From Heterodontus francisci (taxonomy: Eukaryota), in contig NW_027141968.1 in assembly GCF_036365525.1 (NCBI RefSeq), positions 1 to 64,000 of the forward strand: a stretch of DNA of 64,000 bases, written 5' to 3'. Shown piece after piece: positions 15,301 to 59,100 of this stretch. Within the stretch, counting starts at the first letter, position 1; each line of letters starts with the position of its first letter. The translations under genes and the position numbers were made by a program. A model generated the notes under the pieces. It made no database searches and had not been told where the DNA came from. It saw only the letters and a program-made list of their open reading frames with translations.

Positions 15301-18040
15301 GGAGATTATAATCCCCCATGATAATTGCCGTACCATTTTTACAGGCATCAGCTATTTCTTTGTTTATTGCCCGCCCCAATGTGATGTTATTATTTGATGG
15401 ACAATAGACTACGCCTATCAGTGACTTTTTCTTCTTAGAGTTTCTACTTTCCTCCCAAATGGATTCAACCTCATTCTCTGTAGAACCTATATCATCTCTC
15501 AGCAGCCCCCTGATGTTGTCCTTGAATATCAGAGCTACACCACCTCCCTTACCTTCCTGTCTGTCTTTCCGAATAGACTGGTACCCCTGGATACTTAACT
15601 CCCAGTCGTGACCAACCTGTAACCATGTCTCCGTAATGGCTACCAAATCATATTCATTCACGATGATTTGAGCCGTTAACTCATCAACCTTGTTAAGAAT
15701 GCTACGAGCATTCAGGTAAAGTGCCTTTATGCTAGCTTTCTTACCGTCATGATTTCCAACATCTCTAATAATATCTCCTGAGTTATCCTTCCTTTCTGCT
15801 TCATTCATAGTCTGCCTTGAACTTAAACCCTCCTGCACACATGTTAATCTGCTGCTTACCTTTGTATTTATCATCATACTCCCTGTCGTTTTCCCTTTCC
15901 CTTCCCCCCGACTCACTAGTTTAAAGTCCTAGAGACCACCCTATTTATCCTTTTCGCTGGAACACTGGTTCCAGATCTGTTCAGGTGGAGACCCATCGGT
16001 ACAGATCCCCCCGTTCCAAAACTGATGCCAATGCCCCATGAAATGGAACCCCTCTTTCCCACACCACTCCCTTAGCCAAATGTTTACTTCCATAATTTTC
16101 TTATCCCTAAGCCAATTTGCACATGGCTCGGGCAGTAATCCAGAGATTATGACCCTCGAGGACCGGTTCCTTAATTTCATTCCTAGTGCTTTATAATCCC
16201 CAAACAGGTCCTCCATCCTAGCCTTGCCTATGTTGTTAGGCCCAACGTGGATCACAACAAATGGATCCTCCCCCTCCTGCTCCAATATCCTTTCATGCCG
16301 GTCAGAGGTATCCTGCACCCTGGCACCGGGCAGGCGACACACCATGCGGGACTCCCGATCCAGCTTGCAAAGGATACTATCTATCCCCCTAATTATAGAA
16401 TCCCCTATAACTACCACTTGTCTTTTTGCTCCCCCCTCGTGAATGGCCTTCTGCACCATGGTGCCATGGTCAGTTGGCTCATCCTCCCCGCAGCCCTTTT
16501 CCTCATCCACACACGGAGCAAGTATCTCGTACCTGTTGGATAAGGTCAAAGGCTGAGGCTCCTCCACTCCTGAACTCAGGATCCCCCTAACTGCCTCACT
16601 TGCAATCGCACCCTGTTGTCCCTGATCACTAACTGAATTTGAATTACTTAATCTACCAGCTGTGACTGCCTCCTGAAACAAAGCGTCCAGGTAACTCTCC
16701 CCCTCCCGGATGTGCCGCAGTGTTTGAAGCTCAGATTCCAGATCATCAACTCTGAGCCGGAGTTATTCCAGCAACCAATACTTGCTGCAGATGTGGTCAC
16801 AGTCGTTCACAATGGGGTCAGCCAGCTCCCACATCATGCAGCTGCAGCACATCACCTGCCCAGCTATCTCTGCTCAGTTAACTACTTTATTACTTTATAT
16901 AAATTTATGAGTTAAATACTCTGATTCTTCTCTGCTATGGTCTTTTTCAAATAACCAATTAATAGATAAATCAAAAAAGAAAGTAAATTTTTAACCAATC
17001 ACACGATACAGTAGAAATAGAAAAGCTTCCACCAGAGTCCTTTTTTGCCTGCTGCAGTCAAATTGCCTTGAAAACCTTTACAAACTTTTCATCCACATCA
17101 CCTGGGAGACTTCGAGTGACATCAACTTTTCGAATCTGGGACGCATGACCTTGCCAAGGACATCCTACCAAGACACGATAAACTGAATTATTTTTATTAT
17201 TCCTTCTATTCCTAAGAAACAGCTTGAAGCCAAATATCATTTATCGCCGGTTAAGCGTTTTTTAATGTGCATGTGTGTGCATGATCGTTAAGGAAATAAG
17301 GGATTCGTTTTCCCCAGATATCTAGATATATCTAATTAATAGTTAAGGCTTATTATTTACTTTTAAATAAATAATGTTGCTGTTATTTAAATAAAGTTGG
17401 TTTGGTTTGCTTCATTCCAGGGGTGAGGGGAATGCAGTGTTTACTTTGGCTATTTTTCGGTAGCTGGGTAAAGGTATTTGATATTCTATTACCTGTGGAG
17501 GAGTGGGACTGAAGTCAGAGTGCAATACTTCCGCCTTCATCGTAACATATTAACTGTGGGCTTGTCCGGGATCATTCCAATGCTAATTATTTTAATTGTG
17601 AGGGGAGGTAGAATTGAAAGAGAAAAATAAAGGAACCAGGTTTCTTGTGTAATTGGGTAGAGCCTACACCACGTAATGGCATTAGAAATTGCTGCAGCTA
17701 TTCTGGGAACTACGAATGTGTCCGTCAATGACCTGAAAACTTGAACCAAGATTAAACTGAAAGATTGGGCTGCACAATTCGAGTTAAAATTGAGCGCATT
17801 TTGGAAAGAACAGAGATGATTGATGCAGTAGCCCTACATCTGAAATTGGAAGAAGTTAGCATATCAGAGAGTGCTGCAGTTTGATTAGCTAGAGTTCAGT
17901 TAGAATTTAAAAAAAGAAAAAGACCAGGAAAAAATTTGAAAAACTTAAAATGGAGGCTCAGAAAAAGAAGTAAGAACACTTGAACGGGAAAAAGGAACGG
18001 GGGAAAGAGACAGCATTAGTATATTAGCAGTAATTAGTTT
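12362..18040 (+). mobile_element. Gmr1-like Gypsy remnant: LTR (split by a CR1), tRNA-Pro PBS (17555-17572), gag start
   Basis: LTR ends ...CGTAACA at 17547. PBS TGTGGGCTTGTCCGGGAT is 16/18 to TGGGGGCTCGTCCGGGAT. gag MALEIAAAILG... is homologous to 45117 onward. The LTR start is uncertain. Confidence 0.7.
12823..17047 (-). mobile_element. Near full-length CR1 LINE, disrupted (ORF1 esterase, ORF2 APE-RT)
   Basis: ORF1 has GDSII and HVGPNN. ORF2 14084-15916 has NARS, ITETW, GDYN and YRPISLTS. RT pieces are frameshifted. Confidence 0.95.
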
Positions 18041-18900: not shown

Positions 18901-21800
18901 TTTGTGGCTAACCGGTCTATAATACCCTGCCTCCTTTTTAAGTAGTGGGGTGACATTAGCTACCGTCCAATTCTTTGGAACTGTTCCAGAGTCGATAGAA
19001 TTTTGAAAATAAAATAACCAGCAATGCATCTACTATTTCTAGGGCCACTTACTTCACTCCTCTGGGATGTATATTATTAGGGGTCCTGGGAATTTATCTG
19101 CCTTCAATCCCGTCAATTTTCCTAACACCATTTCCCTAACAATACTGATTTCATACAGTTCGTCCTTCTCACGACACCCAATGTTCCCCAACACTTCTGG
19201 GAGGTAATTTGTGTCTTCCTTTGTGAAGACAGAAACAAAGTATGTATTTAATTGGTGTGCCATTTCTTTATTCCCCATGATAAATTTCCACGTTTCTGAC
19301 TGTAAGGGGCCCACATTTGGCTTCACTAATCCTTTCCTCTTCACATACCTATAGAAGCTTTAACCGTCAGTTTTTATGTTCTCAGCAATCTTACTCTCAT
19401 AGTCTATTTTCCCCTTCCTAATCAACCGCTTTGTCCTCTTTTGATGAATTCTAAACTACTCCCAATGCCCAGGTTTGTTGCTTGTTCTGGCCTTTTTATA
19501 TTTCTCCACCTTGGATCTACTGCTGTTGCTAATTTCTTTTGTAAACCACGGTTGAGCCACTCTTCCTGCTTTCTATTTTGCGTCTGACAGGGATGAACAA
19601 TTGTTGTAATTCATCCATGTGCTTTTTAAATGCTAGCCATTGCCAATGCACCATCAACCCTTTAAGCAACGTTCCACAATCTATCATAGCCAACTAGCCC
19701 CTCATACCTTCATAGTTTCCTTTATTTAGATTCAGGACCCGAGGCTCGGAACCAATTCCCTCACTCTCCAACTTAATGAAGAATTCTATCATGTTATGGT
19801 CTCTCTTCCGGAAGGGACCGCCGCACAGCAAGATTCTTAACTAATCACTTCTCATTACACAATACCCAGCCTATAATGACCTGTTCTCTAGTGGTTTCCT
19901 CAATGTATTGGTCTAATCAACCATCACGTATGCACTCCAGGAATTCTTCCTCTCCAGAATTATTGCTAATTCGGTATGCCTAATCTATATGTAGATAAAA
20001 GTCACCCATTATTACAGTTGCACCCTTATTGCATACGTTTCTAATTCCCTGTTAAGTGCCATACTCGATATTGCCACTGCTGTTTGGGGGGTCTATATTT
20101 AACCCCCACCAATGTTTTCTGCCCCTCGGTGTTTTTTAGTTCCACCCATACAGATTCCACTTCAGGATTCCCTCAGCTAATATCCTTCCTCTCTATAGTA
20201 TTGATGTTCTCTTTTCCTAGCAATTCTACTCGACCTACATTTCCTTTTTGACTGTCCTTCTTAAATATTGAATGACCCTGGATATTCAGTTCCCATCCTT
20301 GGTCACCCTACAGTCATGTCTCCATAATCACAATTACATTGTATGCATTTGCATCTATTGGCATGGTTAATTCACCTATCTTATTGTGAATACTCCGCGC
20401 ATTGAGATGCGATGCCTCTACGCTTGTATTTTTAACATTCTTCATCATCTCAGCATTATTTTGCACTATGGCCCTATTTGTTTCTTGCCCTTGATTTCCA
20501 TGCATTTCCATGGACTTTTGCATTTTTGGTTTCCTGTCTTTCGTTTCTATCCGTGTTTCCTCCTCCTCAGTCTCTCTACTAAAGTTCCCATCCTCTGCGA
20601 TTCTAGTTTAAATCCTCCCAAACAAGACTAGCAATCACCCCGTTGAGGACATCGGTCCCGTCCTGCCTGAGTGTAACCCGTCCCGCTTGTACAGGTCCCA
20701 TCTTCCCCAGAACTGGCCCCGATATCCCAGGAATCTAAATCCCTCCGTCCAGCCACGCATTCATCTGGTCTATTCTCCTAACACGTGGCACAGGAAGTAA
20801 TCTTCAGATTACTACTTTTGAGGTATTACTTTTTAATTGCAGGACCTCATCCCTTTTTTATACATATGTCGGTGGTACTAACATGTACCACGACTACTGG
20901 CTGGTCACCCTCCCCCTTCAGAATGTCCTACAGCCGCTACGAGACATCCTTGATACCAGCACCAGTGAGGCAACATACCACCCTGGAGTCTCGTTAACCG
21001 CCATAGAAACGCCTGTCTGTTCCCCTTACAATTGAATCTCGTATCACTATGGCTCTCCCAGCCTTCCCGTCCAGCTTCCTGTGCAGCAGAGCTATCCATG
21101 GTGCCACGGAATTGGCTGTTGCTGCTGTCCCCTGGGAGGCCATCGGCCCAACAGTATTCAAATTGATATACCTATCTGAGGGGGGTATGGCCACAGGGAC
21201 CCCTGCAGTCCCTGCCTGCTCATACTACTCCACCTTGTGTGCACCCATTACTTGTGGTGTGACCACCTCTTTAAACGTTCAATTCACAACGTCCTCAGAA
21301 TCGCGGATGTTCCACATTGAGTCCGTCCGCAGCTCGAGCTCCGTAATGCGGGTAGCCAGCAACTACAGCTGGATGCACTTCCTCCACACACTGGAAGCGT
21401 CCCTGATTTCCCACATAGTGCAGGAGGAGCGTATCATGGGTGCGAGCTCTCCTGCCATGACAACTTTAGATTATTAGTTAGTCCCTATAAATTAACATTC
21501 GTTACAGTAGGGGCCTTATGCTACTCCAAACACTACCCCATACAGTCTAAAGTCCTTAATAAATTGCAGTAATTAAAAAAAACATACTTTAGTATTACTC
21601 ACCTTATCAGTTATACGGTAGGTTTTGAGAGTTAAAAAAAAAACTGCCCCCTTATTTCTTATGCTATTAAAATCCACTAACAGCTGTTACTTACCCAACA
21701 AGTTCGCTTACGATTTTCCCGTGATGTCACTGGAAGTCTTTTCTTCCCCCTCTTTTGATTCTCTTTGAATTGGGGCCATTCGAGTCAGGGCAGGAAGTGC
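18900..21800 (-). mobile_element. Degenerate CR1 (5' UTR, ORF1, endonuclease, start of RT)
   Basis: RDSIVRGTDRRF, LNARSIHNK, NVTPLLKK. Confidence 0.85.
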
Positions 21801-37018: not shown

Positions 37019-39973
37019 CTAAACATGTCGCCTATTTTCTAAGGTTCTGTATCTCTTTTCTTCCGGCCCATTCATGTATCTGTCTAGATACATCTTAAAA
37101 GACTCCATCGTGCCCGCGTCTACCACCTCCGCTGGCAACGCGTTCCAGGTGCCCACCACCCTCTGCGTAAAGAACTTTCCACGCATATCCCCCCTAAACA
37201 TTCCCCCTTTCACTTTGAACTCGTGTCCTCTAGTAATTGAAGCCCCCACTCTGGGAAAAAGCCTCTTGCTGTCCACCCTGTCTATACCTCTCATGATTTT
37301 GTACACCTCAATCAGGTCCCCGCTCAACCTCCGTCTTTCTAATGAAAATAATCCTAATCTACTCAACCTCTCTTCATAGCTAGCGCCCTCCATACCAGGC
37401 AACATCCTGGTGAACCTCCTCTGCACCCTCTCCAAAGCATCCACATCCTTTTGATAATGTGGCGACCAGAACTGTACGCAGTATTCCAAATGTGGCCGAA
37501 CCAAAGTCCTATACAACTGTAACATGACCTGCCAACTCTTGTACTCAATGTCCCGTCCGATGAAGGAAAGCATGCCGTATGCCTTCTTGACCACTCTATT
37601 TACCTGCGTTGCCACCTTCAGGGAACAGTGGACCTGAACACCCAAATCTCTCTGGACATCAATTTTCCCCAGGACTTTTCCATTTACTGTATAGTTCACT
37701 CTTGAATTGGATCTTCCAAAATGCATCACCTCGCATTTGCCCTGATTCAACTCCATCTGCCATTTCTCTGCCCAACTCTCCAATCTATCTATATTCTGCT
37801 GTATTCTCTGACAGTCCCCTTCACTATCTGCTACTTCACCAATCCTAGTGTCGTCTGCAAACTTGCTAATCAGTCCACCTATACTTTCCTCCAAATCATT
37901 AATGTATATCACAAGCAACAGTGGTCCCAGCACGGATCCCTGTGGAACACCACTGGTCACACGTCTCCATTTTGAGAAACTCCCCTCTACTGCTACTCTC
38001 TGTCTCCTGTTGCCCAGCCAGTTCTTTATCCATCTAGCTAGTACACCTTGCACCCCAAGCGCCTTCACTTTCTCCATCAGCCTGCCATGGGGAACCTTAT
38101 CAAACGCCTTACTGAAGTCCATGTATATGACATCGACAGCCCTTCCCTCATCAATCAACTTTGTCACTTCCTCAAAGAATTCTATTAAGTTGGTAAGACA
38201 TGACCTTCCCTGCACAAAACCATGTTGCCTATCACTGATGAGCCCATTTACTTCCAAATGGGAATAGATCCTATCCCTCAGTATCTTCTCCAGCAGCTTC
38301 CCTACCACTGACGTCAGGCTCACCGGTCTATAATTACCTGGATTATCCCTGCTACCCTTCTTAAACAAGGGGACAACATTAGCAATTCTCCAGTCCTCCG
38401 GGACCTCACCCGTGTTTAAGGATGCTGCAAAGATATCTGTTAAGGCCCCAGCTATTTCCTCTCTCGCTTCCCTCAGTAACCTGGGATAGATCCCATCCGG
38501 ACCTGGGGACTTGTCCACCTTAATGCCCTTTAGAATACCCAACACTTCCTCCCTCCTTATGCCGACTTGACCTAGAGTAATCAAACATCTGTTCCTAACC
38601 TCAACATCCGTCATGTCCCTCTCCTCGGTGAATACCGATGCAAAGGACTCGTTTAGAATCTCACCCATTTTCGCTGAGTCCAAGCATAACATTCCTCCTT
38701 TGTCCTTTAGTGGGCCAATCCTTTCTCTAGTTACCCTCTTTCTCCTTATATATGAATAAAAGGCTTTGGGATTTTCCTTAACCCTGTTTGCTAAAGATAT
38801 TTCATGACCCCTTTTAGCCCTCTTAACTCCTCGTTTCAGATTGGTCCTACATTCCCGATATTCTTTCAAAGCTTCGTCTTTCATCAGCCGCCTGCACCTT
38901 ATGTATGCTTCCTTTTTCCTCTTAGCTAGTCTCACAATTTCACCTGTCATCCATGGTTCCCTAATCTTGCCATTTCTATCCCTCATTTTCACAGGAACAT
39001 GTCTCTCCTGAACGCTAAGCAACCTCTCTTTAAAAGCCTCCCACATATCACATGTGGATTTACCTTCAAACAGCTGCTCCCAATCTACATTTCCCAGCTC
39101 CTGCCGAATTTTGGTATAGTTGGCCTTCCCCCAATTTAGCACTCTTCCTTTAGGACCATTCTCGTCTTTGTCCATGAGTATTTTAAAGCTTACGGAATTG
39201 TGATCACTATTCCCAAAGTAGTCCCCTACTGTAACTTCAACAACCTGGCCGGGCTCATTCCCCAACACCAGGTCCAGTATGGCCCCTTCCCGAGTTGGAC
39301 TATTTACATACTGCTCTAGAAAACCTTCCTGGATGCTCCTTACAAATTCTGCTCCATCTGGACCTCTAACACTAAACGAATCCCAGTCAATGTTGGGAAA
39401 ATTAAAATCTCCTATCACCACCACCCTGTTGCTCCAACATCTTTCATTAAACTTTTTACATATTTGTACCTCTATCCCACGCTCGCTGTTGGGAGGCCTG
39501 TAGTACAGCCCCAACATTGTTACCGCACCCTTCCTATTTCTGAGTTCTGTCCATATTGCCTCACTGCTCGAGTCCTCCATAGTGCCCTCCTTCAGCACAG
39601 CTGTCATATCCTCTTTGACCAGTAATGCAACTCCTCCACCCCTTTTACCTCCCTCTCTATCCCGCCTGAAGCATCGATATCCTGGGATATTTAGTTGCCA
39701 ATCATGCCCTTCCCTCAACCAAGTCTCAGTAATAGCAGTAACATCATACTCCCAGGTACTAATCCATGCCCTAAGTTCATCTGCCTTACCTACTACACTT
39801 CTTGCATTAAAACAAATGCACCTCAGACCACCAGTCCCTTTATATTCATCATCTGCTCCCTGCCTGTTCTTCCCCTTAGTCACACTGACTTCATTATCTA
39901 GTTCCTTACAGGCTTTTGTTACTACCTCCTTACTGTCAACTGACCTCAATTGGTTCCCATCCCCCTGCCACAT
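37019..39973 (-). CDS. CR1 ORF2, APE endonuclease + reverse transcriptase, intact 984 aa
   Basis: NARS, ITETW, GDFN, SDH, YRPVSLTS, PQGSVLGP, FADD. Confidence 0.97.
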   Translation of the reverse strand: MWQGDGNQLRSVDSKEVVTKACKELDNEVSVTKGKNRQGADDEYKGTGGLRCICFNARSVVGKADELRAWISTWEYDVTAITETWLREGHDWQLNIPGYRCFRRDREGGKRGGGVALLVKEDMTAVLKEGTMEDSSSEAIWTELRNRKGAVTMLGLYYRPPNSERGIEVQICKKFNERCWSNRVVVIGDFNFPNIDWDSFSVRGPDGAEFVRSIQEGFLEQYVNSPTREGAILDLVLGNEPGQVVEVTVGDYFGNSDHNSVSFKILMDKDENGPKGRVLNWGKANYTKIRQELGNVDWEQLFEGKSTCDMWEAFKERLLSVQERHVPVKMRDRNGKIREPWMTGEIVRLAKRKKEAYIRCRRLMKDEALKEYRECRTNLKRGVKRAKRGHEISLANRVKENPKAFYSYIRRKRVTRERIGPLKDKGGMLCLDSAKMGEILNESFASVFTEERDMTDVEVRNRCLITLGQVGIRREEVLGILKGIKVDKSPGPDGIYPRLLREAREEIAGALTDIFAASLNTGEVPEDWRIANVVPLFKKGSRDNPGNYRPVSLTSVVGKLLEKILRDRIYSHLEVNGLISDRQHGFVQGRSCLTNLIEFFEEVTKLIDEGRAVDVIYMDFSKAFDKVPHGRLMEKVKALGVQGVLARWIKNWLGNRRQRVAVEGSFSKWRRVTSGVPQGSVLGPLLLVIYINDLEESIGGLISKFADDTRIGEVADSEGDCQRIQQNIDRLESWAEKWQMELNQGKCEVMHFGRSNSRVNYTVNGKVLGKIDVQRDLGVQVHCSLKVATQVNRVVKKAYGMLSFIGRDIEYKSWQVMLQLYRTLVRPHLEYCVQFWSPHYQKDVDALERVQRRFTRMLPGMEGASYEERLSRLGLFSLERRRLSGDLIEVYKIMRGIDRVDSKRLFPRVGASITRGHEFKVKGGMFRGDMRGKFFTQRVVGTWNALPAEVVDAGTMESFKMYLDRYMNGPEEKRYRTLENRRHV

Positions 39974-40914
39974 TAGTTTAAACCCTCCCCAACAGCGTTA
40001 GCAAAAGCACCTCCAAGGACATTGGTTCCAGTCCGGCCCAGGTGTAGACCGTCCAATTTTTAATAGTCCCACCTCCCCCAGAACCGGTCCCAATGTCCCA
40101 AAAATCTGAACCCCTCCTTCCTGCACCATCTCTCAAGCCACGCATTCATCCTGACTATTCTTTCATTTTTACTCTGACTATCACGTGGCACTGGTAGTAA
40201 TCCTGAGATTACTACCTCTGAGGTCCTACTTTTTAACTTGGCTCCTAACTCCCTAAACTCTGCTTGTAGGACCTCATCCCGTTTTTTACCTATATCATTA
40301 GTGCCTATGTGCACAATGACAACTGGCTGTTCACCCTCCCCCTTTAGAATGTTCTGCAGCCGATCTGAGACAACCCGTGCACCTGGGAGGCAACATACCA
40401 TTCGGGAGCCTCGTTTTCGACCACAGAACCGCCTATCTACTCCCCTTACAATCGAATCCCCTACGACTATAGCCCTTCCACTCTTTTTCCCGCCCTTCTG
40501 AACAGCAGAGCCAGCCACGGTGCCATGGACCTGGCTACTGCTGCCTTCCCCTGGTGAGCCATCTCCCCCAACAGTATCCAAAACGGTATACTTGTTTTGG
40601 AGGGAGATGACCGCAGGGGACTCCTGCGCTGCCTTCCTGCTCTTTCTCTGCCTTTTGGTCACCCATTCCCTTTCTCCCTCAGCAATCCTAATCTGCGGTG
40701 TGACCAATTCACTAAACGTGCTATCCACGACCTCCTCAGCATCGCGCATGCTCCAAAGTGAGTCCATCCGCAGCTCGAGAGCCGTCATGCGGTCTAACAA
40801 GAGCTGCAGTTGGACACACTTCCTGCACGTGAAGGAGTCAGGGACATCAGCCGTGTCCCTGAGCTCCCACATTGAGCAAGAGGAGCATGACACTGGTCTG
40901 AGATCTCCTGCCAT
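39973..40914 (-). pseudogene. CR1 ORF1 (Cys finger + SGNH esterase) with a premature TAA at 40060-40062
   Basis: CSSC..CRKC, GDS, HIGTND. The frame continues KLDGLHL...GEGLN* after the stop. Confidence 0.9.
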
Positions 40915-41093: not shown

Positions 41094-42364
41094 AAACCGT
41101 CCAAATATATAGTGTTTTTCTTACCCAGCAGCCCCCTGGCCTCCGCCGAAAAACAAAAGGAAATTAAAGTTACTTTCAAACTGACCTTCCCAGCTGCTCA
41201 CTCGCTCACTCTCTGCTCCCGAAAAAGCTGCTGCAGTGAAAGGAAAGTTATTTCAAACCGCCCAGATATATAGTGTTTTACTTACCCAGCAGCCCCCTGG
41301 CCTCCGCCGAAAAACAAAAGGAAATTAAATTTACTTTCAAACTGACCTTCCCAGCTGCTCACTCGCTCACTCTCTGCTCCCGAAAAAGCTGCTGCAATGA
41401 AAGGAAAGTTATTTCAAACCGTCCAAATATATAGTGTTTTACTTACCCAGCAGCCCCCTGGCCTCCGCCGAAAAACGAAAGGAAATTAAATTTACTTTCA
41501 AACTGACCTTCCCAGTGCTCACTCGCTCACTCTCTGCTCCCGAAAAAGCTGCTGCAATGAAAGGAAAGTTATTTCAAACCGCCCAAATATATAGTGTTTT
41601 ACTTACCCAGCAGCCCCCTGGCCTCCGCCGAAAAACAAAAGGAAATTAAATTTACTTTCAAACTGACCTTCCCAGCTGCTCACTCGCTCACTCTCTGCTC
41701 CCGAAAAAGCTGCTGCAATGAAAGGAAAGTTATTTCAAACCGCCCAAATATATAGTGTTTTACTTACCCAGCAGCCCCCTGGCCTCCGCCGAAAAACAAA
41801 AGGAAATTAAATTAACTTTCTAACTGACCTTCCCAGCTGCTCACTCGCTCACTCTCTGCTCCCGAAAAAGCTGCTGCAATGAAAGGAAAGTTATTTCAAA
41901 CCGCCCAAATATATAGTGTTTTACTTACCCAGCAGCCCCCTGGCCTCCGCCGAAAAACAAAAGGAAATTAAATTTACTTTCAAACTGACTTTCCCAGCTG
42001 CTCACTCGCTCACTCTCTGCTCCCGAAAAAGCTGCTGCAATGAAAGGAAAGTTATTTCAAACTGCCCAAATATATAGTGTTTTACTTACCCAGCAGCCCC
42101 CTGGCCTCCGCCGAAAAACAAAAGGAAATTAAATTTACTTTCTAACTGACCTTCCCAGCTGCTCACTCGCTCACTCTCTGCTCCCGAAAAAGCTTCTGCA
42201 ATGAAAGGAAAGTTATTTTAAACCGCCCAAATATATAGTGTTTTACTTACCCAGCAGCCCCCTGGCCTCCGCCGAAAAACAAAAGGAAATTAAATTTACT
42301 TTCAAACTGACCTTCCCAGCTGCTCACTCGCTCACTCTCTGCTCCCGAAAAAGCTGCTGCAATG
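41094..42364 (-). repeat. Tandem array of 8 x 161-bp monomers forming the CR1 5' end
   Basis: CTTACCCAGC recurs at 41120, 41281, 41442, 41602, 41763, 41924, 42085 and 42246. Confidence 0.97.
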
Positions 42365-44935: not shown

Positions 44936-46473
44936 ATGTCGTAACATATTAGTTGGAGGCTCGTCTCTGGGATCACATATTAATTGGATGATCACAATTT
45001 CTGGGTTAAACCCAATGCTGACAACGTTCAATTCTAAGTGAGGTAATAAAAATTGGAAAAGGGTAAATAAAATGAACCAGGTTTCTTCTATAAATGGGTC
45101 AAGGCTTTATCATCTGAATGGTGTTAACAGTTGCTGCAGAGTTTCTGGGAAAGGTGAATGTGCCCCTCAGTGACGACTTTAACCACGATTAAGCTAAAAG
45201 GTTTGGCAGCAAAGTTAGGATTGGAATTAAAATAATGTGGTAAAAAAACAAAGATAATTGACGTCATAGCCCAACATTTAAAAGTAAAAGAGGAAGAACA
45301 AGAAGATAGTAAGTGAGAGGATGATGCAGCTGAAGTGGCTAAGATTTAGTTAGAAATTTTAATAAAACACTCAGGCTTCAACAGGAAAAGGAAATGGTAA
45401 AATTTGAGGCTGAGAAAAAATTATGAAAACCTAAACTTCAGAGAGAAAGTGAAAGAGATGGGAGGGATTTTAGGTTATAAGAAATGCAACTAAGACAAAG
45501 CGGTAATCTTGATTCCAGGTACGGTCTGGTCAGGAAGAATTTTAATTCTGACCATAACCCAAGGAAAAGCTGTTTAGATATATACAAGCTCTTCCAATGT
45601 TTGAGGAAAGGGACTAGAGTCATTTTTCACATCTTGTGCAAAAATAACCAAACAAACGAATTTGCCAAACGAAAGATGGACACTGCTTATGCAAAGTCGG
45701 TAGATGGGCAGAGCTCATGAACTTCATGCCATGCTTCCTGAAGAGGCTTCTGCAGATTATGAGATCGAAAAAAGCGCTATCTTCGCTGCGTATGAGTTAG
45801 TCCGTGAAGGTTACCATCAGAAGTTTCAAAACATATGGAGATTTTTTTTGGCAGACGCATGTAGAATTTGAGAGGGTGAAGCAAATTAGTTTTGACCGTT
45901 GGATACGGGCATCAAAAATTGAAACCACATATGAGAATTTAGAGAACTGATTCTCTTGGAAGAGTTCAAACAAATCAATTCCTTCAGTACTGAGAACTCA
46001 TGTGGATAACCTGTGAGACTTGTGAGTTATAAAGGCCAGGCAAGCGGCAGAAATTGCTGATAATGTTGTGCTTGTGAATAAGCCAAAACCTTTTGTCCGT
46101 CACCCTCATAAACCCAAAACGGATATAAAGTGGGAGAGTGAAAGGAAGGCAAGTAGCCAGGAAGAAGAAGCAACAGCTGGGAATGTCCCAGCTTACTGTT
46201 TTCCTTGTCTTTGAGTTTCTTTTGGCGCCGGAGGAACCGGAAGCTGGTCGGCAGCGAGGACTCCTGGGTAGGTATTTTCCTTAAAGGTGCGGAGCTGAGT
46301 AAACCCGAGCCACTACACATGTAGTGTCTCCCACCCATCCTCCTCCTGTAACCTAATAATAAAACCCTTTTTACCCTCCTCCTCTAACCAAAAAGGACTG
46401 AGCAGGTAAGCTATTTACTGTTTTTGTTAATATCTATAGTTGTACTTAACTAAGGGGTAATTGAATAAAAGAA

Positions 46474-47394
46474 ATGGCAGCCAGTGTAGTGTATTGCTCC
46501 TCCTGCAGAATGTTCGAGGTGAGGGGAACCTCCGGTGACCCTGCCGACTTCACCTGCTGGAAGTGCATCCGTCTCCAGCTCCTATCAGACCGTGTTAGGG
46601 AATTGGAGCTGGAGCTGGATGAACTGAGGATCATTCGGGAAGCTGAGGGGTTGATAGATAGAAGCTACACGGAGGTCGTTACTCCACAAATCAAAGGCAG
46701 CTGGGTAACAGTTAGAGGTGGGAAGAGGTCAGTGCAGGGATCTCCTGTGGTCGTTCCCCTCAACAACAAGTATACAGTTTTAGATACTGTTGGGGGGGAC
46801 GGCCTATCGGGGGCAGGCTGCAGTGACCGGGCCTCTGGCACGGGGTCCTGCACTGCGGCTCAGAAGGGAAGGAGGGAGAATGGGAGAGCACTAGTCATTG
46901 GGGACTCGATGGTGAGGAGTACAGACAGGCGGTTCTGTGGGCGCAGGCGAGACGCACGGATGGTTTGTTGCCTCCCTGGTGCCAGGGTCCGTGATGTTTG
47001 TGATCGCGTCTTCAGGATCCTTAAAGGGGAGGGGGAGCAGCCAGAGGTCGTGGTGCACATTGGCACCAACGACGTAGGAAGGAAGGGTGGCACAGATGTT
47101 AGAAGTGAGTTTAGGGAGTTAGGCTGGAAGCTGAAAGCTCGGACGGACAGAGTTGTTATCTCTGGTTTGTTGCCGGCGCCACGTGATAGTGAGGCTAGGA
47201 ATAGGGAGAGAGCACAGCTGAACACGTGGCTGCAGGAATGGTGTAGGAGGGAGGGCTTCCAGTTCTTGGATAATTGGACTGCATTCTGGGGAAGATGGGA
47301 CCTGTTCAAACAGGACGGGCTGCATCTGAACCAGAGGGGCACCAATATCCTGGGAGGGAGGTTTGCTAGTACTGTTCGGGAGGGTTTAAACTAG
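46474..47394 (+). CDS. CR1 ORF1, Cys finger + coiled coil + SGNH esterase, 306 aa
   Basis: CSSC..CWKC, GDS, HIGTND, DGLH. Confidence 0.95.
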   Translation: MAASVVYCSSCRMFEVRGTSGDPADFTCWKCIRLQLLSDRVRELELELDELRIIREAEGLIDRSYTEVVTPQIKGSWVTVRGGKRSVQGSPVVVPLNNKYTVLDTVGGDGLSGAGCSDRASGTGSCTAAQKGRRENGRALVIGDSMVRSTDRRFCGRRRDARMVCCLPGARVRDVCDRVFRILKGEGEQPEVVVHIGTNDVGRKGGTDVRSEFRELGWKLKARTDRVVISGLLPAPRDSEARNRERAQLNTWLQEWCRREGFQFLDNWTAFWGRWDLFKQDGLHLNQRGTNILGGRFASTVREGLN

Positions 47395-50285
47395 TTTGGG
47401 AGGGGGATGGGAACCGGACTTGTAATCCAGGGACCAGTGGGTCCACTCAGAAAGACAAAGAGTGTAGTGAGGTATTGGGGAAGGTAGCACTGTCACAGAG
47501 GACAGATGGGCACGGAGAAGGGTTAAAGTGCGTATACTTCAACGCAAGAAGCATCAGGAATAAGGTGAGTGAATTGAAGGCGTGGATGGGCACTTGGGAC
47601 TACGATGTTGTGGCCATCACTGAAACGTGGATAGGTGAGGGGGAGGAATGGTTTTTGGAGGTACCTGGTTATAGATGTTTTCATAAGATTAGGAATGGTG
47701 GTAAAAGAGGTGGGGGGGTGGCATTGTTAGTTAGAAATAGTGTAACAACTGCTGAAAGAATTTTCGAGGAGGATCTGCCGACTGAGGCACTGTGGGTTGA
47801 GGTCAGGAACAGGAAAGGAGCAGTCACCTTGATGGGAGTTTTCTATAGGCCCCCCAATAGCAGCAGGGAGGTGGAAGAGCAGATTGGGAAACAGATTTTG
47901 GAAAGGAGCAGAAGTCACAGGGTAGTAATTATGGGGGATTTCAACTTCCCAAATATTGATTGGCAACTCTTTAGATCGAATAGTTTGGATGGGGTAGTGT
48001 TTGTGCAGTATGTCCAGGAAGCTTTTCTGACTCAGTATGTAGACTGCCCGACCAGAGGGGAGGCAATATTGGATTTGGTACTAGGTAATGAACCAGGGCA
48101 AGTGATAGAGCTGTTGGTGGGCGAGCACTTTGGAGATAGTGATCACAATTCTGTAGCATTCACTGTGGTAATGGAGAGGGATAGGTATGTGCAACAGGGC
48201 AAGGTTTACAATTGGGGGAAGGGTAGATATGATGCTGTCAGGCAGGAACTGAGGAGCATAAGTTGGGAGCATATGCTGGCAGGGAAGGGCACGGTCGAAA
48301 TGTGGAACTTTTTCAAGGAGCAGATAGTAGGGGCCATTGATAAGCATGTCCCTGTCAGACAGGGAAGGGATGGTCATGTGAGGGAACCGTGGTTGACAAG
48401 AGAGGTTGAGAGTCTTGTTAGGAAGAAGAAGGATGCGTATATAAAGTTGAGGAAAAAGGGCACAGGCATAGCTCTGGAGGGATACAAGATGGCCAGGAAG
48501 GATCTGAAGAAAGGGATTAGGAGAGCTAAGAGAGGGCATGAAAAATGCTTGGCGGGTAGGATAAAAGAAAACCCCAAGGCCTTTTACGCGTATGTCAGAA
48601 ATATGAGGATGACCAGGGGGACCATAGGTCCGGTCAAGGACAATAGCGGGAGACTGTGTGTTGAGCCGGAAGAGATAAGTGAGGTTTTGAATGAGTACTT
48701 CTCTTCGGTATTTACGAATGAGAAGGGGTGTATTACTGAAGAGGACGATGTGAAACAGATTGGTAAGCTCGAGGAAGTGCTCGTTAGGAGGGAAGATGTG
48801 TTGGGGTTTTTGAATAACTTGAAGATAGACAAGTCTCCCGGGCCTGACGGGGTATATCCAAGGATGTTATGGGAAGCAAGGGATGAAATTGCAGAGCCGC
48901 TGGCAATGATCTTTTCATCTTCTCTGCTGACGGGGGTGGTACCAGGTGATTGGAGGGTGGCAAATGTTGTGCCCCTGTTCAAGAAAGGGAATAGGAACAA
49001 CCCTGGGAATTACAGGCCAGTTAGTCTTACTTCGGTGGTAGGCAAGTTGATGGAAAAGGTGCTGAGGGATAGGATTTCTGAGCATCTGGAAAGACACTGC
49101 TTGATTCGGGACAGTCAGCACGGTTTTGTGAGGGGTAGGTCTTGCCTCACAAGCCTGATTGAATTCTTTGAGCAGGTGACCAAGCAAGTGGATGAGGGTA
49201 AACCAGTGGATGTGGTGTACATGGATTTTAGTAAGGCATTTGATAAGGTCCCCCATGGTAGACTTATGGAGAAAGTCAGGAGGCATGGGATAGTGGGGAA
49301 TGTGGCCAGTTGGATTAAGAATTGGCTAACTGATAGAAGGCAGAGAGTGGTCTTAGATGGTAAATACTCAGCCTGGAGCCCAGTTACCAGTGGCGTGCCG
49401 CAGGGATCAGTTCTGGGTCCTCTCCTGTTTGTGATTTTTATTAACGACTTGGATGAGGAAGTCGAAGGGTGGGTCAGTAAATTTGCAGATGATACAAAGG
49501 TTGGTGGAGTTGTGGATACCGAGGAGGGCTATTGTCGTCTGCAAAGGGACTTGGATAGGTTGCAGTGCTGGGCTGAAAAGTGGCAGATGGAGTTTAACCC
49601 TGAAAAGTGTGAGGTCGTCCATTTTGGAAGGACAAACATGAATGCAAAATACTGGGTTAACGGTAGGGTTCTTGGGCATGTGGAGGAGCAGAGAGACCTT
49701 GGGGTCCATGTGCATAGATCATTGAAAGTTGCAACTCAAGTGGATAGGGCTGTGAAGAAGGCATATGGGGTGTTAGCGTTCATTAGCAGAGGGATTGAAT
49801 TTAAGAGCCGTGAGGTGATGATGCAGCTGTACAGGACCTTGGTAAGGCCTCATTTGGAGTACTGTGTGCAGTTCTGGTCGCCTCATTTTAGGAAGGATGT
49901 GGAAGCCTTGGAGAGGGTGCAGAGGAGATTTACCAGGATGTTGCCTGGAATGGAGAATAAGTCTTACGAGGAAAGGCTGAACATTCTAGGCCTCTTCTCA
50001 TTAGAAAGGAGAAGGATGAGGGGTGACATGATAGAGGTTTATAAGATGATCAGGGGAATAGATAGGGTAGACAGTCAGAAACTTTTTCCCCGGGTGGAGC
50101 AAAGCGTTACAAGGGGTCATAAATTTAAGGTGAAGGGTGGGAGATATAAGGGGGATGTCAGGGGAAGGTTCTTTACCCAGAGAGTGGTCGAGGCATGGAA
50201 TGCCTTGCCCGGTGAAGTTGTTGAGTCAGAAACTTTAGGGACTTTCAAAAGGCTTTTGGATAGGTATATGGATAAAGGAGAATGA
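47391..50285 (+). CDS. CR1 ORF2 (APE + RT), open in the -1 frame from the ORF1 stop; no AUG before the endonuclease
   Basis: LVWEGDGNR...YFNARS...GDFN...SDH...FADD, uninterrupted. Confidence 0.95.
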   Translation, partial: LVWEGDGNRTCNPGTSGSTQKDKECSEVLGKVALSQRTDGHGEGLKCVYFNARSIRNKVSELKAWMGTWDYDVVAITETWIGEGEEWFLEVPGYRCFHKIRNGGKRGGGVALLVRNSVTTAERIFEEDLPTEALWVEVRNRKGAVTLMGVFYRPPNSSREVEEQIGKQILERSRSHRVVIMGDFNFPNIDWQLFRSNSLDGVVFVQYVQEAFLTQYVDCPTRGEAILDLVLGNEPGQVIELLVGEHFGDSDHNSVAFTVVMERDRYVQQGKVYNWGKGRYDAVRQELRSISWEHMLAGKGTVEMWNFFKEQIVGAIDKHVPVRQGRDGHVREPWLTREVESLVRKKKDAYIKLRKKGTGIALEGYKMARKDLKKGIRRAKRGHEKCLAGRIKENPKAFYAYVRNMRMTRGTIGPVKDNSGRLCVEPEEISEVLNEYFSSVFTNEKGCITEEDDVKQIGKLEEVLVRREDVLGFLNNLKIDKSPGPDGVYPRMLWEARDEIAEPLAMIFSSSLLTGVVPGDWRVANVVPLFKKGNRNNPGNYRPVSLTSVVGKLMEKVLRDRISEHLERHCLIRDSQHGFVRGRSCLTSLIEFFEQVTKQVDEGKPVDVVYMDFSKAFDKVPHGRLMEKVRRHGIVGNVASWIKNWLTDRRQRVVLDGKYSAWSPVTSGVPQGSVLGPLLFVIFINDLDEEVEGWVSKFADDTKVGGVVDTEEGYCRLQRDLDRLQCWAEKWQMEFNPEKCEVVHFGRTNMNAKYWVNGRVLGHVEEQRDLGVHVHRSLKVATQVDRAVKKAYGVLAFISRGIEFKSREVMMQLYRTLVRPHLEYCVQFWSPHFRKDVEALERVQRRFTRMLPGMENKSYEERLNILGLFSLERRRMRGDMIEVYKMIRGIDRVDSQKLFPRVEQSVTRGHKFKVKGGRYKGDVRGRFFTQRVVEAWNALPGEVVESETLGTFKRLLDRYMDKGE

Positions 50286-50829
50286 TGGGGTATAGATTAA
50301 ATTGTCCTTGACAGAGGACAAAGGATCGGCACAACATTGTGGGCCGAAGGGCCTGTTCTGTGCTGTATGTTCTATGTTCTATGTTCTATATCCCCTGCAC
50401 AGGCCAGAAAGGAAGGTGATGAGGATCGGAGTGAGGTCCACAATCCAAAGTGCTTTCATTGCCAAAAGCTGGGTTATCTTCGTGCAGAATGCTGGAAATT
50501 GCGAGGTAAACCCATAGGACTTAATACGTAGAGAGTACAGCAGACTAGGCTGTAGCTTTGACGGCAGCTGTAAAACTCGATACAAAAACGAAAGTGAGTG
50601 TAGAGGTTAAAAATAGATAGCCGAAAGTTATAATGAATTCTTGTCCAAGGGAAAAGTAACTTCATATCCTTAAGTGAGGCAAAAAAAACCATCATTATAC
50701 TCTGGGATACAGGTGCATCCCAAACACTCTTGCTGAGGAAATATATAACGTTTTCACCAGAGATCACCCTAAATGCTGCCGTTTGAGTTAATGGGACTGC
50801 AGGGGAATATATGCCCCTACCTTTTTATG

Positions 50830-51939: not shown

Positions 51940-52265
51940 GTCTCATGCTCCGTCTGTCTCACTCCATTTCCCTTAATACTTGTTCATTCCCCCCTTTCTC
52001 TCTCTCTCTCCCTCTCTCTGTCTCTGTCGCACACACACAGACACACTTACTCTCCCTGTCAATCTGTATCTCTCGCTCTATGACGCTCATTTCCTCTCTC
52101 TCTCTCTATTTCATTCACTCTCACTGTATATCTGTCTATCTGTCTCTCACACTCTATCACTCTCATTAGCTGCCTGACCTTCCCCGGCTTTCTCTCTATT
52201 TCTCTCTTTGTATAATTCTCCCACTCTCCCTGTCCATCTGTATCTCTCACTCTTTCAGTCTCACA

Positions 52266-52319
<54 letters not shown>

Positions 52320-52706
52320 CTCATGGCCTGCATGTGGACTCTGACTCCATCTCTGTTTCTCACTCCCTTTCAATCCCTGTCTGTCTGTCTGGCTGTCGTG
52401 CTCTATATCACTGTCNNNNNNNNNNNNNNNNNNNNNNNNNNNNNNNNNNNNNNNNNNNNNNNNNNNNNNNNNNNNNNNNNNNNNNNNNNNNNNNNNNNNN
52501 NNNNNNNNNNNNNNNNNNNNNNNNNNNNNNNNNNNNNNNNNNNNNNNNNNNNNNNNNNNNNNNNNNNNNNNNNNNNNNNNNNNNNNNNNNNNNNNNNNNN
52601 NNNNNNCACTCTCCCTGTATCTATCTCTTTCTCTATCAATCGCATTCTCTGTCTGTCTCCATCTATCTCCCCTTCTCTCTCTCATGCTATATCTTTCTCA
52701 CTCTCA

Positions 52707-56100: not shown

Positions 56101-59100
56101 CCACTTTGGCCAGATCCTGTTTATCACATTGGAATCTTCCTTCTCCCAATTCATTACTTTTATTTCTGGTCTCTCTATGTCCTTTTCCATAACTGCTTAA
56201 ATCTTACAGAGTTATGGTCACTCTCCCGAAATGCTCCCCCACTGCCACTTCTATCACTTTTCCTTCCTCATTCCCCAGGATTAAGTCCAGCACCGCTCCT
56301 CCTCTTGCAGGACTCTCTACGTGCTGGCTCAAACAAACCCTCCTGAATTCACTTGAAGAATTCCGCCCCCTTCAAACGTTTTGCACTGATGCTATCCCCT
56401 CTAATATAGGGGAAGTTTAAATCCTATTAGTTTTGCACCTCTCTGACATTTGCCTCCATGTCTGCCCCTCTATCTCTCCCTGACTGTTTGGAAGCCTGTA
56501 GTACATTTCCAGCCAAGTGATTGCCCCAATTTGTTTTTAAGTTCTACCCATATGGCCTTATTGGAGTAACCTTCTCAGATATCATTCCCCACCCCTCCTG
56601 ACTGCGGTAATTGACACCTTAATCAACAGTGCAATGCCACCTCCTCTTTTACCCCGTCTCCTATCACGTCTGTAGATTCTATACCCAGTCCTGCCCTTCT
56701 GTCAATCATGTCTCAGTGATAGCAATAATATACCAAAAAAACATGTGTTAATCAACGCCCTCAATTCATCTGCCTTACTAGTAAGACTCCTTGCATTAAA
56801 ATGGGTAAAATCCAGCCTTGCATTATTTGCTCGAACCTTAACAGGTCTGCATTTACTCTGCCATTCAAAGTGACTTCGCTTCTCTTCTATATTTGAATGT
56901 CGATCACCCCTTACTGTGTTTCCATTCTGCATCCCATCCCCCTGGCAAATAAGTATATATCCCTAACCCCCGCCCCCCACCCCCAACAGCATCAGCAAAC
57001 CTCCCAGCAAGGATGTTGGTCCCGTTACAGTTCAGATGCAACCCCTCCATCTTATTCAGATCCTAACTTCTCCAGAAACAAACCCAGTGATCCAGGAAAC
57101 TAAACCCTCCCTCCTGCACCATCTTTTCAACCATGCATTCATCTGCTCTAACCTCCTATTCATATACTCACTAATTCATGGCACCAGCAGAAACCCAGAT
57201 ATTTCAATCTTTGAGTTCCTACTTTTTAATCTGCTGCCTAGTTCCCTAAATTCTTTTTGCAGGACCTCATCCCTCTTTCTATCTATGTCATTGGTGCCAA
57301 CATGGACCAGACCTCTGGCTGTGCACCCTCACCCTCCAGAATACTCGGTACCCGCTCGATGATATCCATTACCCTTGCACCAGGGACGCAACAGATGATC
57401 CTAGAATCACATCTGCGAAAACAGAAACGCCTATCGTTTCCTCCAACCACAGAATCCACTACCTCTATTGTCCTATTTCCCCTTTTTCTCCATCCCAGCA
57501 CAGCTGACTCACCAATTATATTCTGGTTATGACTCTGTGTGCATTTTCCGAATGAACCCTCTTTCCCATTACTACCCAGAACTGAATACCGGTTAGAAAG
57601 TGAGATGTTCTCCGGACACTCTTAAACTGCATGCCCTGACTTCCTTGTCCGTCTGGCAGCCACCCAGTCACGCCCCGACTGTGCCTCGGCACCGGCTTGC
57701 TTACCTCCTGAAACGTGCCATCCATGTAGCCCTCCACCTCGTGGATGTGTCACAGTGACTCCAGCCGCTGCTCGAGCTCCGAAACCCGAAGTTTAAGCTT
57801 CTGCAACCGGAGACAGCTTCCGCAGGCATGTTCGCCAAGGTCACATGTCATGTTCAGAACTTCCCACGTTGCACAGCAGGCACATTCTGCTTGGCCAAGC
57901 TGTCCTACCATTACTTAATTTTATAATGAAAACTTATCAGCTATTTACAATTAGCTTTCATCCCCTGTATCTTTGAGGCTGTGAAAGAAAAAGACCAAAA
58001 AGCACCTTCCACCGCCCCCAGCCAGCGAAAATACCCACACTTAACTTCCTGCAAACAGCACTAGCATAGCTAGAAAATACTAATTATTTACAGGTCGCTA
58101 TTCTAGGGCTTTAATTTAAAAGGTACCTTTTCATTTAACTCCAATCAATCACAGTTATCCCCAGGCAATAACAGCTGTCGGCCACCGACCAATCAGCACA
58201 CAGAATTTCAGTGATGTCACTACTGTTTCTTTGCTAAATCCAAACAGAGCGCGTGCAGAAACAATCAGAGAGTCCGCCGCTGCCCCTGACGTCAGGTAGG
58301 TAAAGGACCTGGAGCCCCGCTCCGTTTCGAAAGCTTTTCATCCCTATTCCTTTCAGGTCCGCCGCTGCCCCGGACGTCAGGTTGGGTTACACAGTATGGG
58401 GCAGTGTCCCTTTACCCTGGCTACTTTATCTGACAGTGTACTGGTTTTCAATAAGCGACCTCCAAATGCCCAAACAGCATTGTGAGCATCCGATACCAAC
58501 CTTTGCGCCATGCTGCGGGATGAGCTGTGACATATGGGATTTTGGATTCACCCTATGCCCGTGGCCCTGACAATCACAGTGGCACTAAACTTCCACACTT
58601 CTAGATCTTTCCAGGAACCTCCAGCGACATGTATGGGGTCACACAGGCAGCAGAGCATCACTGCATTAAGGCGTTGAACAATCCCCTATTCAAGAGGGCC
58701 GACGAGTAGCGAGTATGTGCATTAACAGACCAACCCTGAAAGTCATGCCGAGGGGGCCAACAGATTGGGGGTCATCGCCAGATTTCCACGGGTGCAGGGT
58801 CTGTTAGATTGCATCCATGTGGTCTTCAACAGAGCAGCCAGCCGTCTTCACCAACAGGAAAGGCTTCCCTTCAATCATGTTCAACTGGTCTGCGACCACA
58901 AACGACATTTCCTGCAGGTGTTTGCCCACTTCCAAAGCAGCTGCAATGCCTTCATACTTCTCAGAACAAAGCACCACAACTTTTGTGGCCGCCGCTCGCG
59001 TTCAGGAATAAATTCTCCGGGAGAAGAGCTACACATTGAGGCGTGCCTTCTCACGCTTATGAGGAACCCTAGAAATGCAGTGGAGGAAAGGTGCAACACT

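Follow-up and report, generated by a model that had tools for sequence, protein, structure and literature searches.

A conserved U_UUA_AAC heptamer at the ORF1/ORF2 junction of esterase-type CR1 retrotransposons: a candidate programmed -1 frameshift site

How the second open reading frame (ORF2) of a CR1 retrotransposon comes to be translated is the question raised by the first 64,000 nucleotides (nt) of contig NW_027141968.1 from the Heterodontus francisci assembly GCF_036365525.1, the whole of which is called the window here. The window holds many fragments of long interspersed nuclear elements (LINEs), among which CR1 LINEs, with an esterase ORF1 and an ORF2 for endonuclease (EN) and reverse transcriptase (RT), are abundant, and one CR1 copy is essentially intact (the 46200-50390 region of the plus strand, the 47k copy). 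Translation of LINE ORF2 has been called an open question in reviews (PMC3894237, PMC3708506; published work is cited throughout for the parts covered), and the worked-out cases are the stop-start coupling of SART1 and the unconventional initiation of L1. For the esterase-type CR1 LINEs of jawed vertebrates, the sequences assembled here make it probable that programmed -1 frameshifting gives rise to an esterase-EN-RT fusion protein.

The candidate signal lies at the very end of ORF1 (46474..47394, plus strand, 306 aa). Codons 304-306 contain the slippery heptamer U_UUA_AAC at 47385..47391 (+), phased as X_XXY_YYZ in the ORF1 frame, and the ORF1 stop codon UAG (47392..47394, +), which a -1 shift would turn into CUA (Leu), abuts its 3' side. 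A tblastn scan of the window with ORF1 and ORF2 queries located five ORF1-to-ORF2 transitions and one further ORF1 that ends prematurely, the other copies being 43-60% identical to the intact copy in ORF1 and 35-61% in ORF2. Three further junctions, all on the minus strand, carry the same arrangement of nnT TTA AAC followed by a stop: the 40k copy (39956..39982; heptamer 39976-39982, then TAA and the G-rich motif discussed below), which has an ORF2 frame open for 992 codons and a premature stop in ORF1; the 16k copy (15899..15925; heptamer 15919-15925, then TAG and GGGGGAAGGG), in which about 40% of the amino acids match those of the 47k copy; and the decayed 20k copy (20587..20612), in which the heptamer at 20606-20612 and its TAG are intact. 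A preliminary description of this DNA had reported these four junctions, and their positions and preceding codons (GGT, GGT, ACT and GAT in the 47k, 40k, 16k and 20k copies) proved correct, including the remark that the preceding codon varies and keeps its third-position T. Its count of four copies overlooked a fifth junction in the decayed 57k copy (56933..56959, minus strand), where several stops and shifts have accumulated and TATATAC-TTA near 56953-56959 replaces heptamer and stop, so that the heptamer in frameshift phase is present at four of five junctions rather than at four of four.

The motif is enriched beyond composition. TTTAAACT occurs nine times in the window, with 3.07 occurrences expected and none of 100 shuffles reaching nine; four of the nine are the ORF1/ORF2 junctions, and the remaining five lie away from any ORF1 end. 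Within the intact ORF1 the only X_XXY_YYZ heptamers are U_UUA_AAC and an overlapping G_GGU_UUA one codon upstream, formed by GGT after GAG at 47382-47388 (+) and again at 39979-39985 (-) in the 40k copy.

Codon comparison points to constraint on the nucleotides themselves, since synonymous sites elsewhere are largely scrambled. Among the alignment columns invariant in the four heptamer-bearing copies, no other Leu column (0/23) and only one of six Asn columns uses a single codon in all four, which bears out the nucleotide-level constraint on TTA AAC suggested in the preliminary description; a third-position T is shared by all four copies in 15 of 739 aligned columns. In these elements TTA accounts for 14% of Leu codons and AAC for 42% of Asn codons, giving a joint chance by codon usage of 0.0148 per copy and of 3e-6 for three further copies if these are independent, a figure that serves only as a guide because ORF1 is not fully saturated.

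The same junction was sought in published consensus sequences, those of Supplementary Table 2 of PMC13343379, whose rows were inspected by eye over their first 400 letters. These rows are a sample rather than a census, as most begin far upstream of the junction. The string tttaaacta has 23 matches there, of which 17 are ORF1/ORF2 junctions (16 in CR1-labelled rows and one in a Crack row), two fall within CR1 5' regions and four within L2 or Rex1 rows. The 17 junctions carry 11 species codes, which we take to stand for a teleost (AldAff), an alligator (AllMis), the bowfin (AmiCal), the bullfrog (AquCat), the elephant shark (CalMil), the saltwater crocodile (CroPor), a stingray (HypSab), the coelacanth (LatCha), a sawfish (PriPec), a catshark (ScyCan) and a dogfish (SquAca). 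The codon that precedes TTA varies in these rows (TAT, GCT, CTT, GAT, TGT, GGT). As a search with the motif presupposes it, a second search was anchored on the codons for NARS and DGLHL in the endonuclease; every CR1 junction in view had the heptamer or began inside it, and two extra junction rows were added in this way, HypSab_CR1-13 with the full heptamer and ScyCan_CR1-14, which starts inside it. Synonymous variation of the heptamer among CR1 families would speak against a slippery site, and none was found among the visible consensus rows: 11 synonymous or first-base variants were searched, and none of the matching places inspected, all but two of the total, was a CR1 junction. The row AldAff_Crack-2 has an esterase-type ORF1 end and the same junction motif, and may be a CR1 or share a module with CR1.

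Selection on the protein end offers a different explanation of these junctions: Leu-Asn-stop would be kept for the sake of ORF1p, the shared codons would reflect inheritance or a bias in base composition, and ORF2 would be translated from any AUG at hand. At the protein level Leu-Asn is indeed the rule. Two protein searches with ORF1 returned 223 ORF1-like proteins, of which 180 reach the last helix; 169 of these end at the normal place, seven run on and four stop early, and 159 of the 169 end in Leu-Asn. For the 117 named proteins the corresponding numbers are 88 normal ends and 83 Leu-Asn ends, spread over cartilaginous fish (14/15), coelacanth (1/1), teleost (1/1), frogs (6/6), turtles (31/32), squamates (8/8) and birds (22/25), neither of the two crocodilian proteins ending at the normal place. 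The amphipathic last helix of ORF1 (residues 287-305 in the AlphaFold model) ends with Leu305, a bacterial hydrolase (L005, one of ten GTDB loci of the SGNH type) likewise ends T-L-N by way of ACC TTG AAT, and ORF1 synonymous sites are slightly less scrambled than those of ORF2 (four-fold columns identical in all four copies: 4/15 in ORF1, 1/35 in ORF2). Leu-Asn is therefore compatible with a protein function, and the argument is carried by the DNA rows, not the proteins. In the DNA, the scarcity of TTA among Leu codons and its absence as a shared codon from all other invariant Leu columns are hard to reconcile with protein-end selection, as is a third-position T kept under at least seven amino acids from chimaera to crocodilians; the intact copy would moreover yield a truncated endonuclease. 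The protein set itself has 11 residues before Leu-Asn (A, G, T, Y, S, C, D, E, L, I, H), and in 156 of the 159 proteins this residue is one for which an NNU codon exists, with E, Q, K, M or W making up about one third at the two positions further upstream. Selection for the protein end alone is largely refuted and is an extremely unlikely explanation.

A programmed -1 shift would lead into a frame that is open. Between the heptamer and the NAR codons no stop interrupts the -1 frame in four of five copies, over 128-206 nt, with two to ten stops in the other frames over the same stretch and only 0.2-5% of shuffles staying open; the 47k, 40k and 16k copies thus show the ORF2 overlap in the -1 frame that had been claimed for them. 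The linker differs in length and sequence among copies, the decayed 57k copy retains it together with the G-rich motif, and in the 20k copy, where the stretch from the heptamer to the G-rich motif and the G-D-G codons is one base shorter, the open frame is +1. On the 5' side of the heptamer a stop closes the -1 frame one to five codons away (one codon in the 16k copy), and no copy has an AUG there; the only near-cognate start between this stop and the heptamer is a TTG in the decayed 20k copy, the three other heptamer-bearing copies having none. The -1 reading of the heptamer, Phe-Lys-Leu (FKL), therefore cannot be kept by initiation upstream.

Downstream, a conserved start codon is equally absent. 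In the intact copy, the ORF2 frame (47370..50285, plus strand, 971 codons stop to stop) has its first AUG at 47586..47588, within the endonuclease domain at ORF2-frame residue 73 and 15 codons beyond the Asn of the NARS motif (47541..47552, +), which lies in the first conserved endonuclease block. As the exonuclease III match begins at ORF2-frame residue 53, with residue 64 aligned to L1 endonuclease residue 22, initiation at residue 73 would lose this first block, and the same truncation is seen in four database ORF2 proteins whose annotated start is an MGNKQEEL-type Met just past NARS. The statement that the first ORF2 AUG lies beyond NARS holds for the intact copy and does not extend to the 40k copy (in-frame AUG at codon 4) or the 16k copy (codons 17, 18 and 40). 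In copies other than the intact one, AUGs occur at codons 4, 8, 10 or 17 from the heptamer TTT, at positions that are not shared, and the -1 downstream ORF is thus open from the site onwards with no conserved start of its own.

These starts bring in termination-reinitiation, in which ribosomes would stop at the end of ORF1 and restart in the -1 frame, either in the manner of SART1, at UAAUG, or in that of L1, at a non-AUG codon close by, the conserved A/U run and the G-rich motif serving to position the restart and ORF2p being a separate protein. The stop codon always adjoins the motif, and translation of ORF2 depends on that of ORF1 in both SART1 and L1 (PMC2881922, PMC3708506). The TAATG overlap noted for the 40k copy and the TAGTG of the 16k copy are both present. 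As a general coupling device UAAUG fares less well, since TAATG occurs at the 40k junction and at 3/17 consensus junctions and is missing from the three other heptamer-bearing junctions of the window and from 14/17 consensus junctions, and there is free variation in the codon that follows the stop (GTT, ATG, GTG, GAA and others). UGGGA, the reinitiation motif of caliciviruses, where it is located upstream of the stop, is often found within the G-rich motif; here its place is downstream of the stop, the 16k copy and the crocodilian consensus rows lack it, and a calicivirus-type mechanism was rejected on these grounds. Above all, reinitiation leaves an invariant X_XXY_YYZ heptamer in frameshift phase unexplained, and it is an unlikely account of the junction.

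Canonical -1 sites are completed by a stimulator, and downstream of the heptamer the preliminary description had mentioned G-runs. These are present and amount to a motif at a fixed position: GGGGGAUGGG occupies 47402..47411 (+) after a 10-nt spacer, and GGGGGA(U/A)GGG starts exactly 11 nt past the heptamer in four of the five window copies, GGGGGA-N-GGG occurring once or twice per element. The +11 register recurs in 6/17 consensus junctions (chimaera, shark, ray and crocodilians), and wherever the motif sits in this register both Gly codons are GGG. ViennaRNA places a G-quadruplex at the motif in three of five copies, and G4Hunter scores there are 1.24-1.72 in four copies, within the top 0.1-1.8% of scored segments, and 0.68 in the 20k copy. 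The motif is a candidate stimulator that would act as a G-quadruplex or as a protein-binding site.

A pyrimidine stretch of the 5' untranslated region (UTR) of the intact copy, at 46334-46347, pairs over 14 bp with the G motif region at 47398-47411 (+; -29.6 kcal/mol), and one of 60 G-rich control probes paired equally well. Because the pairing is weaker in the 40k copy and was not seen in the 16k, 20k and 57k copies, it was rejected as a general explanation of the motif; it is possibly a long-range contact specific to a subfamily.

Classical structure is another matter. Folding of the 100 nt 3' of the heptamer gave no stable fold relative to shuffles in any of the five copies (z = +1.08, +0.17, -1.12, -0.57 and -0.68; pseudoknots not modelled), and Rfam gave no relevant match, only two irrelevant ones below threshold. 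A stem-loop or pseudoknot as the stimulator, as expected 5-9 nt downstream of a canonical heptamer, is thus unsupported within the limits of this folding. Three defining features of canonical -1 signals are found at the junction, namely a heptamer in phase, conservation beyond coding need and an open -1 frame, and the fourth fails; the site is therefore described as a variant rather than a canonical -1 signal.

The missing structure also favours a role unrelated to decoding, such as a protein-binding or packaging site, an internal promoter or an RNA-processing signal, with ORF2 made from a processed or shorter transcript. TTTAAA resembles a TATA element, the consensus rows ScyCan_CR1-1b and ScyCan_CR1-14 start at or inside the heptamer, and GGTTTAAACTA is found in two CR1 5' regions. 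Such a role explains neither the exact phase to both ORFs nor the stop-free -1 linker of variable length, and a transcript starting at the heptamer would have no AUG before NARS in the intact copy. A splice acceptor at the junction was rejected, as an AG is required and the TAA junctions have none. A non-decoding role is very unlikely. The two 5' regions in question are those of SquAca_CR1-18 and SquAca_CR1-3, with GGTTTAAACTA(A/G)G upstream of ORF1; this 5'-region motif and the rows starting at the heptamer could be an artefact of curation, mark a hotspot of truncation or be left over from 5'-end swapping.

The programmed -1 frameshift would proceed as follows. The last two ORF1 codons would form the shift site, at which the majority of ribosomes would read ...X-Leu-Asn and stop, giving ORF1p. 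A minority would undergo a tandem -1 slip on U_UUA_AAC, tRNA-Leu moving from UUA to UUU and tRNA-Asn from AAC to AAA, after which the stop would be read as CUA (Leu) and translation would run on through the variable stop-free linker, about 43-69 codons long, to the endonuclease and RT. For the intact copy the predicted product is a Gag-Pol-like ORF1p-linker-EN-RT fusion 1270 aa long, with the junction ...REGLN-LVWEGDG.... The pause needed for the slip would probably come from the adjacent stop codon and the G-rich motif 10 nt downstream rather than from a classical hairpin or pseudoknot.

Several observations weigh against this reading, in addition to those already given for the other explanations (the end of the helix at Leu305, the T-L-N hydrolase, the less scrambled ORF1 sites, the occasional TAATG and the lack of a detected downstream structure). 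The exact +11 G motif is absent from 11 of the 17 consensus rows, most of which are G-rich in another register, the AldAff and SquAca_CR1-17a junction rows have no G-run at all, and other segments outscore the motif in G4Hunter in four of five G-rich elements. In-frame AUGs stand before or near NARS in the 40k, 16k, 20k and 57k copies. Three of the 159 Leu-Asn proteins (P0024, P0096 and P0286) have Glu before Leu-Asn, and a Glu codon cannot end in U; for these E-L-N proteins the heptamer would have to begin with A or G, two of them belong to a divergent family, and that family could use a variant of the G_UUA_AAC type. The residue before Leu-Asn may be half-buried, which confounds the comparison of NNU codons. 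Finally, an esterase-EN-RT LINE (L001, 2087-5631) lacks TTTAAAC and has an in-frame AUG. It was found in a scan of genome contigs that gave ten loci, none of them a vertebrate CR1 and nine matching the esterase only. L001, the only one with an ORF2, is an invertebrate-like LINE that lies on a bacterial metagenome-assembled contig and is probably animal host DNA; a C-terminal extension is present in its ORF1, which overlaps ORF2, in the -1 frame, by roughly 170 nt. A tblastn search of plasmids with ORF1 gave no match.

Natural fusion proteins were also looked for among database ORF2 proteins. An ORF2 protein search gave 156 matches; the motif pair was present in 86, an upstream stretch of 45 residues or more in 40 and FKL in three, and two proteins from the ORF1 searches run on into FKL. 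These may be mutated copies or artefacts of gene models and are not counted as evidence of natural fusion, and the search for FKL upstream of ORF2 is weak because gene callers start downstream.

Taken together, constraint, phasing, the open -1 linker and the want of a conserved AUG support the -1 frameshift reading of the CR1 junction proposed in the preliminary description. To judge from sequence comparison, the conserved nucleotide signal is real and deep and appears to work like a -1 frameshift site. A wider proposal is that canonical CR1 LINEs have made a Gag-Pol-like fusion by -1 frameshifting ever since the origin of jawed vertebrates, with a signal made up of the heptamer, the stop next to it and, 10 nt downstream, a G5-A-N-G3 element acting as a natural G-quadruplex or protein-binding stimulator; this is put forward tentatively, as an idea rather more apt to fail than to hold.

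The element itself is most likely an esterase-type CR1, a label taken from domain content and from likeness to rows labelled LINE/CR1, not from an RT tree. Its 5' UTR (46200..46473, +, the 5' boundary being approximate) lies upstream of the ORF1 AUG and has a motif in common with the 5' region of the 40k copy. ORF1 comprises a Cys-rich N-terminus, a long helix and an SGNH/GDSL esterase and ends ...GLN-stop; Pfam PF13472 is matched with E 5.8e-14 in the intact copy and in all three ORF1s scanned, over the curated cut-off in two. ORF2 comprises the variable linker, an apurinic/apyrimidinic endonuclease (APE; PF03372, E 6.1e-20) and an RT (PF00078, E 1.4e-36), and also matches L1 endonuclease and exonuclease III. 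The 3' UTR (50286..50390, +) terminates in a (TATGTTC)n microsatellite tail, and CR1 LINEs typically have such a tail rather than poly(A). By eye, the junction DNA resembles the rows ScyCan_CR1-1a and PriPec_CR1-7, both labelled LINE/CR1, and the nearest named relatives of ORF1 are shark and ray proteins. The top ORF1 match (P0001, 91% identical) is labelled Pseudomonas aeruginosa and looks like contamination, that is, vertebrate DNA in another assembly, as does P0069, a frog-type CR1 ORF1 labelled Protopolystoma xenopodis. The 5' region of the 40k copy (about 41100-41500, minus strand) contains tandem monomers of about 160 bases with GGTAAG motifs resembling splice donors, an arrangement that recalls monomeric LINE promoters. 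A run of N at about 52250-52440, an assembly gap, lies within a simple-repeat region.

The heptamer has well-studied counterparts. Deltaretroviruses use U_UUA_AAC at their pro-pol junction, and the spacing of the stimulatory motif of PRRSV, the virus of the porcine reproductive and respiratory syndrome, is roughly 10 nt. U_UUA_AAC is listed with the -1 heptamers on which mammalian ribosomes shift most readily and, as the preliminary description stated, is the coronavirus heptamer in this very phase, as in infectious bronchitis virus (IBV) 1a/1b (PMC5009743). The CR1 junction is like such viral sites in heptamer and phase, in an upstream ORF that ends at or soon after the site and in a polymerase ORF in the -1 frame; it is unlike them in having no hairpin or pseudoknot detected 5-9 nt downstream (pseudoknots not modelled), in the G-rich motif after 10 nt and in its host, a non-LTR (long terminal repeat) retrotransposon with an esterase ORF1. 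PEG10, PNMA3 and LTR gag-pol share with it a classical heptamer and a -1 shift into a pol-like frame in animal cells (PMC5009743), whereas PEG10 and PNMA3 are derived from Gypsy/LTR elements and stimulated by pseudoknots and CR1 is a LINE of the APE type. The PRRSV nsp2 site, stimulated in trans by nsp1beta and PCBP, likewise relies on a short single-stranded motif and not on structure (PMC5009743), although that motif is C-rich with a protein partner and the CR1 motif is G-rich. In synthetic constructs, frameshifting is stimulated by G-quadruplexes; as of 2016 natural stimulators of this type were expected but not known, and a stop codon close by matters at an umbravirus frameshift site (all PMC5009743).

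Among LINEs, frameshifting is not without precedent, since a -1 shift is stated to be needed for ORF2 of the Dictyostelium elements TRE5-A and TRE3-A of the L1 clade (PMC5911963), which differ from CR1 in clade and host. SART1 and L1 resemble CR1 in a bicistronic LINE RNA with ORF2 output tied to ORF1 translation; they differ in giving a separate ORF2p, and CR1 has a heptamer rather than a stop-start and no spacer between its ORFs. No report of CR1 frameshifting was found in the literature searched, which excludes Haas 1997/2001, Kajikawa 1997 and Kapitonov and Jurka 2003, works that may note the overlap or the heptamer. Within the text covered, the word frameshift is absent from the CR1 survey PMC13343379, its preprint and supplement and from PMC3894237, CR1 is absent from the first 300,000 characters of PMC5009743, and no CR1 frameshifting is described in the covered parts of PMC11835228, PMC7175516, PMC4255032, PMC13405545 and PMC3905857.

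Most vertebrates have CR1 as their dominant retrotransposon (PMC13343379), and the CR1 esterase has been proposed to bind lipids (PMC3905857). The predicted ORF1p-ORF2p fusion would tether the RT to the esterase and fix the ratio of ORF1p to ORF2p. The absent hairpin (pseudoknots not modelled) and the fixed G motif suggest that the stimulator is of a kind not yet characterised, and the conserved slippery site makes translation of CR1 ORF2 directly testable by one reporter experiment. Annotated ORF2 starts at the Met after NARS strip the first endonuclease block, and CR1 retrotransposition assays or CR1-based tools would have to retain the native junction. If CR1 frameshifting is true, CR1 ORF2 proteins annotated from an internal Met would be mis-started, LINEs would have a third route to ORF2p, and vertebrate genomes would harbour an unusually old and abundant frameshift signal.

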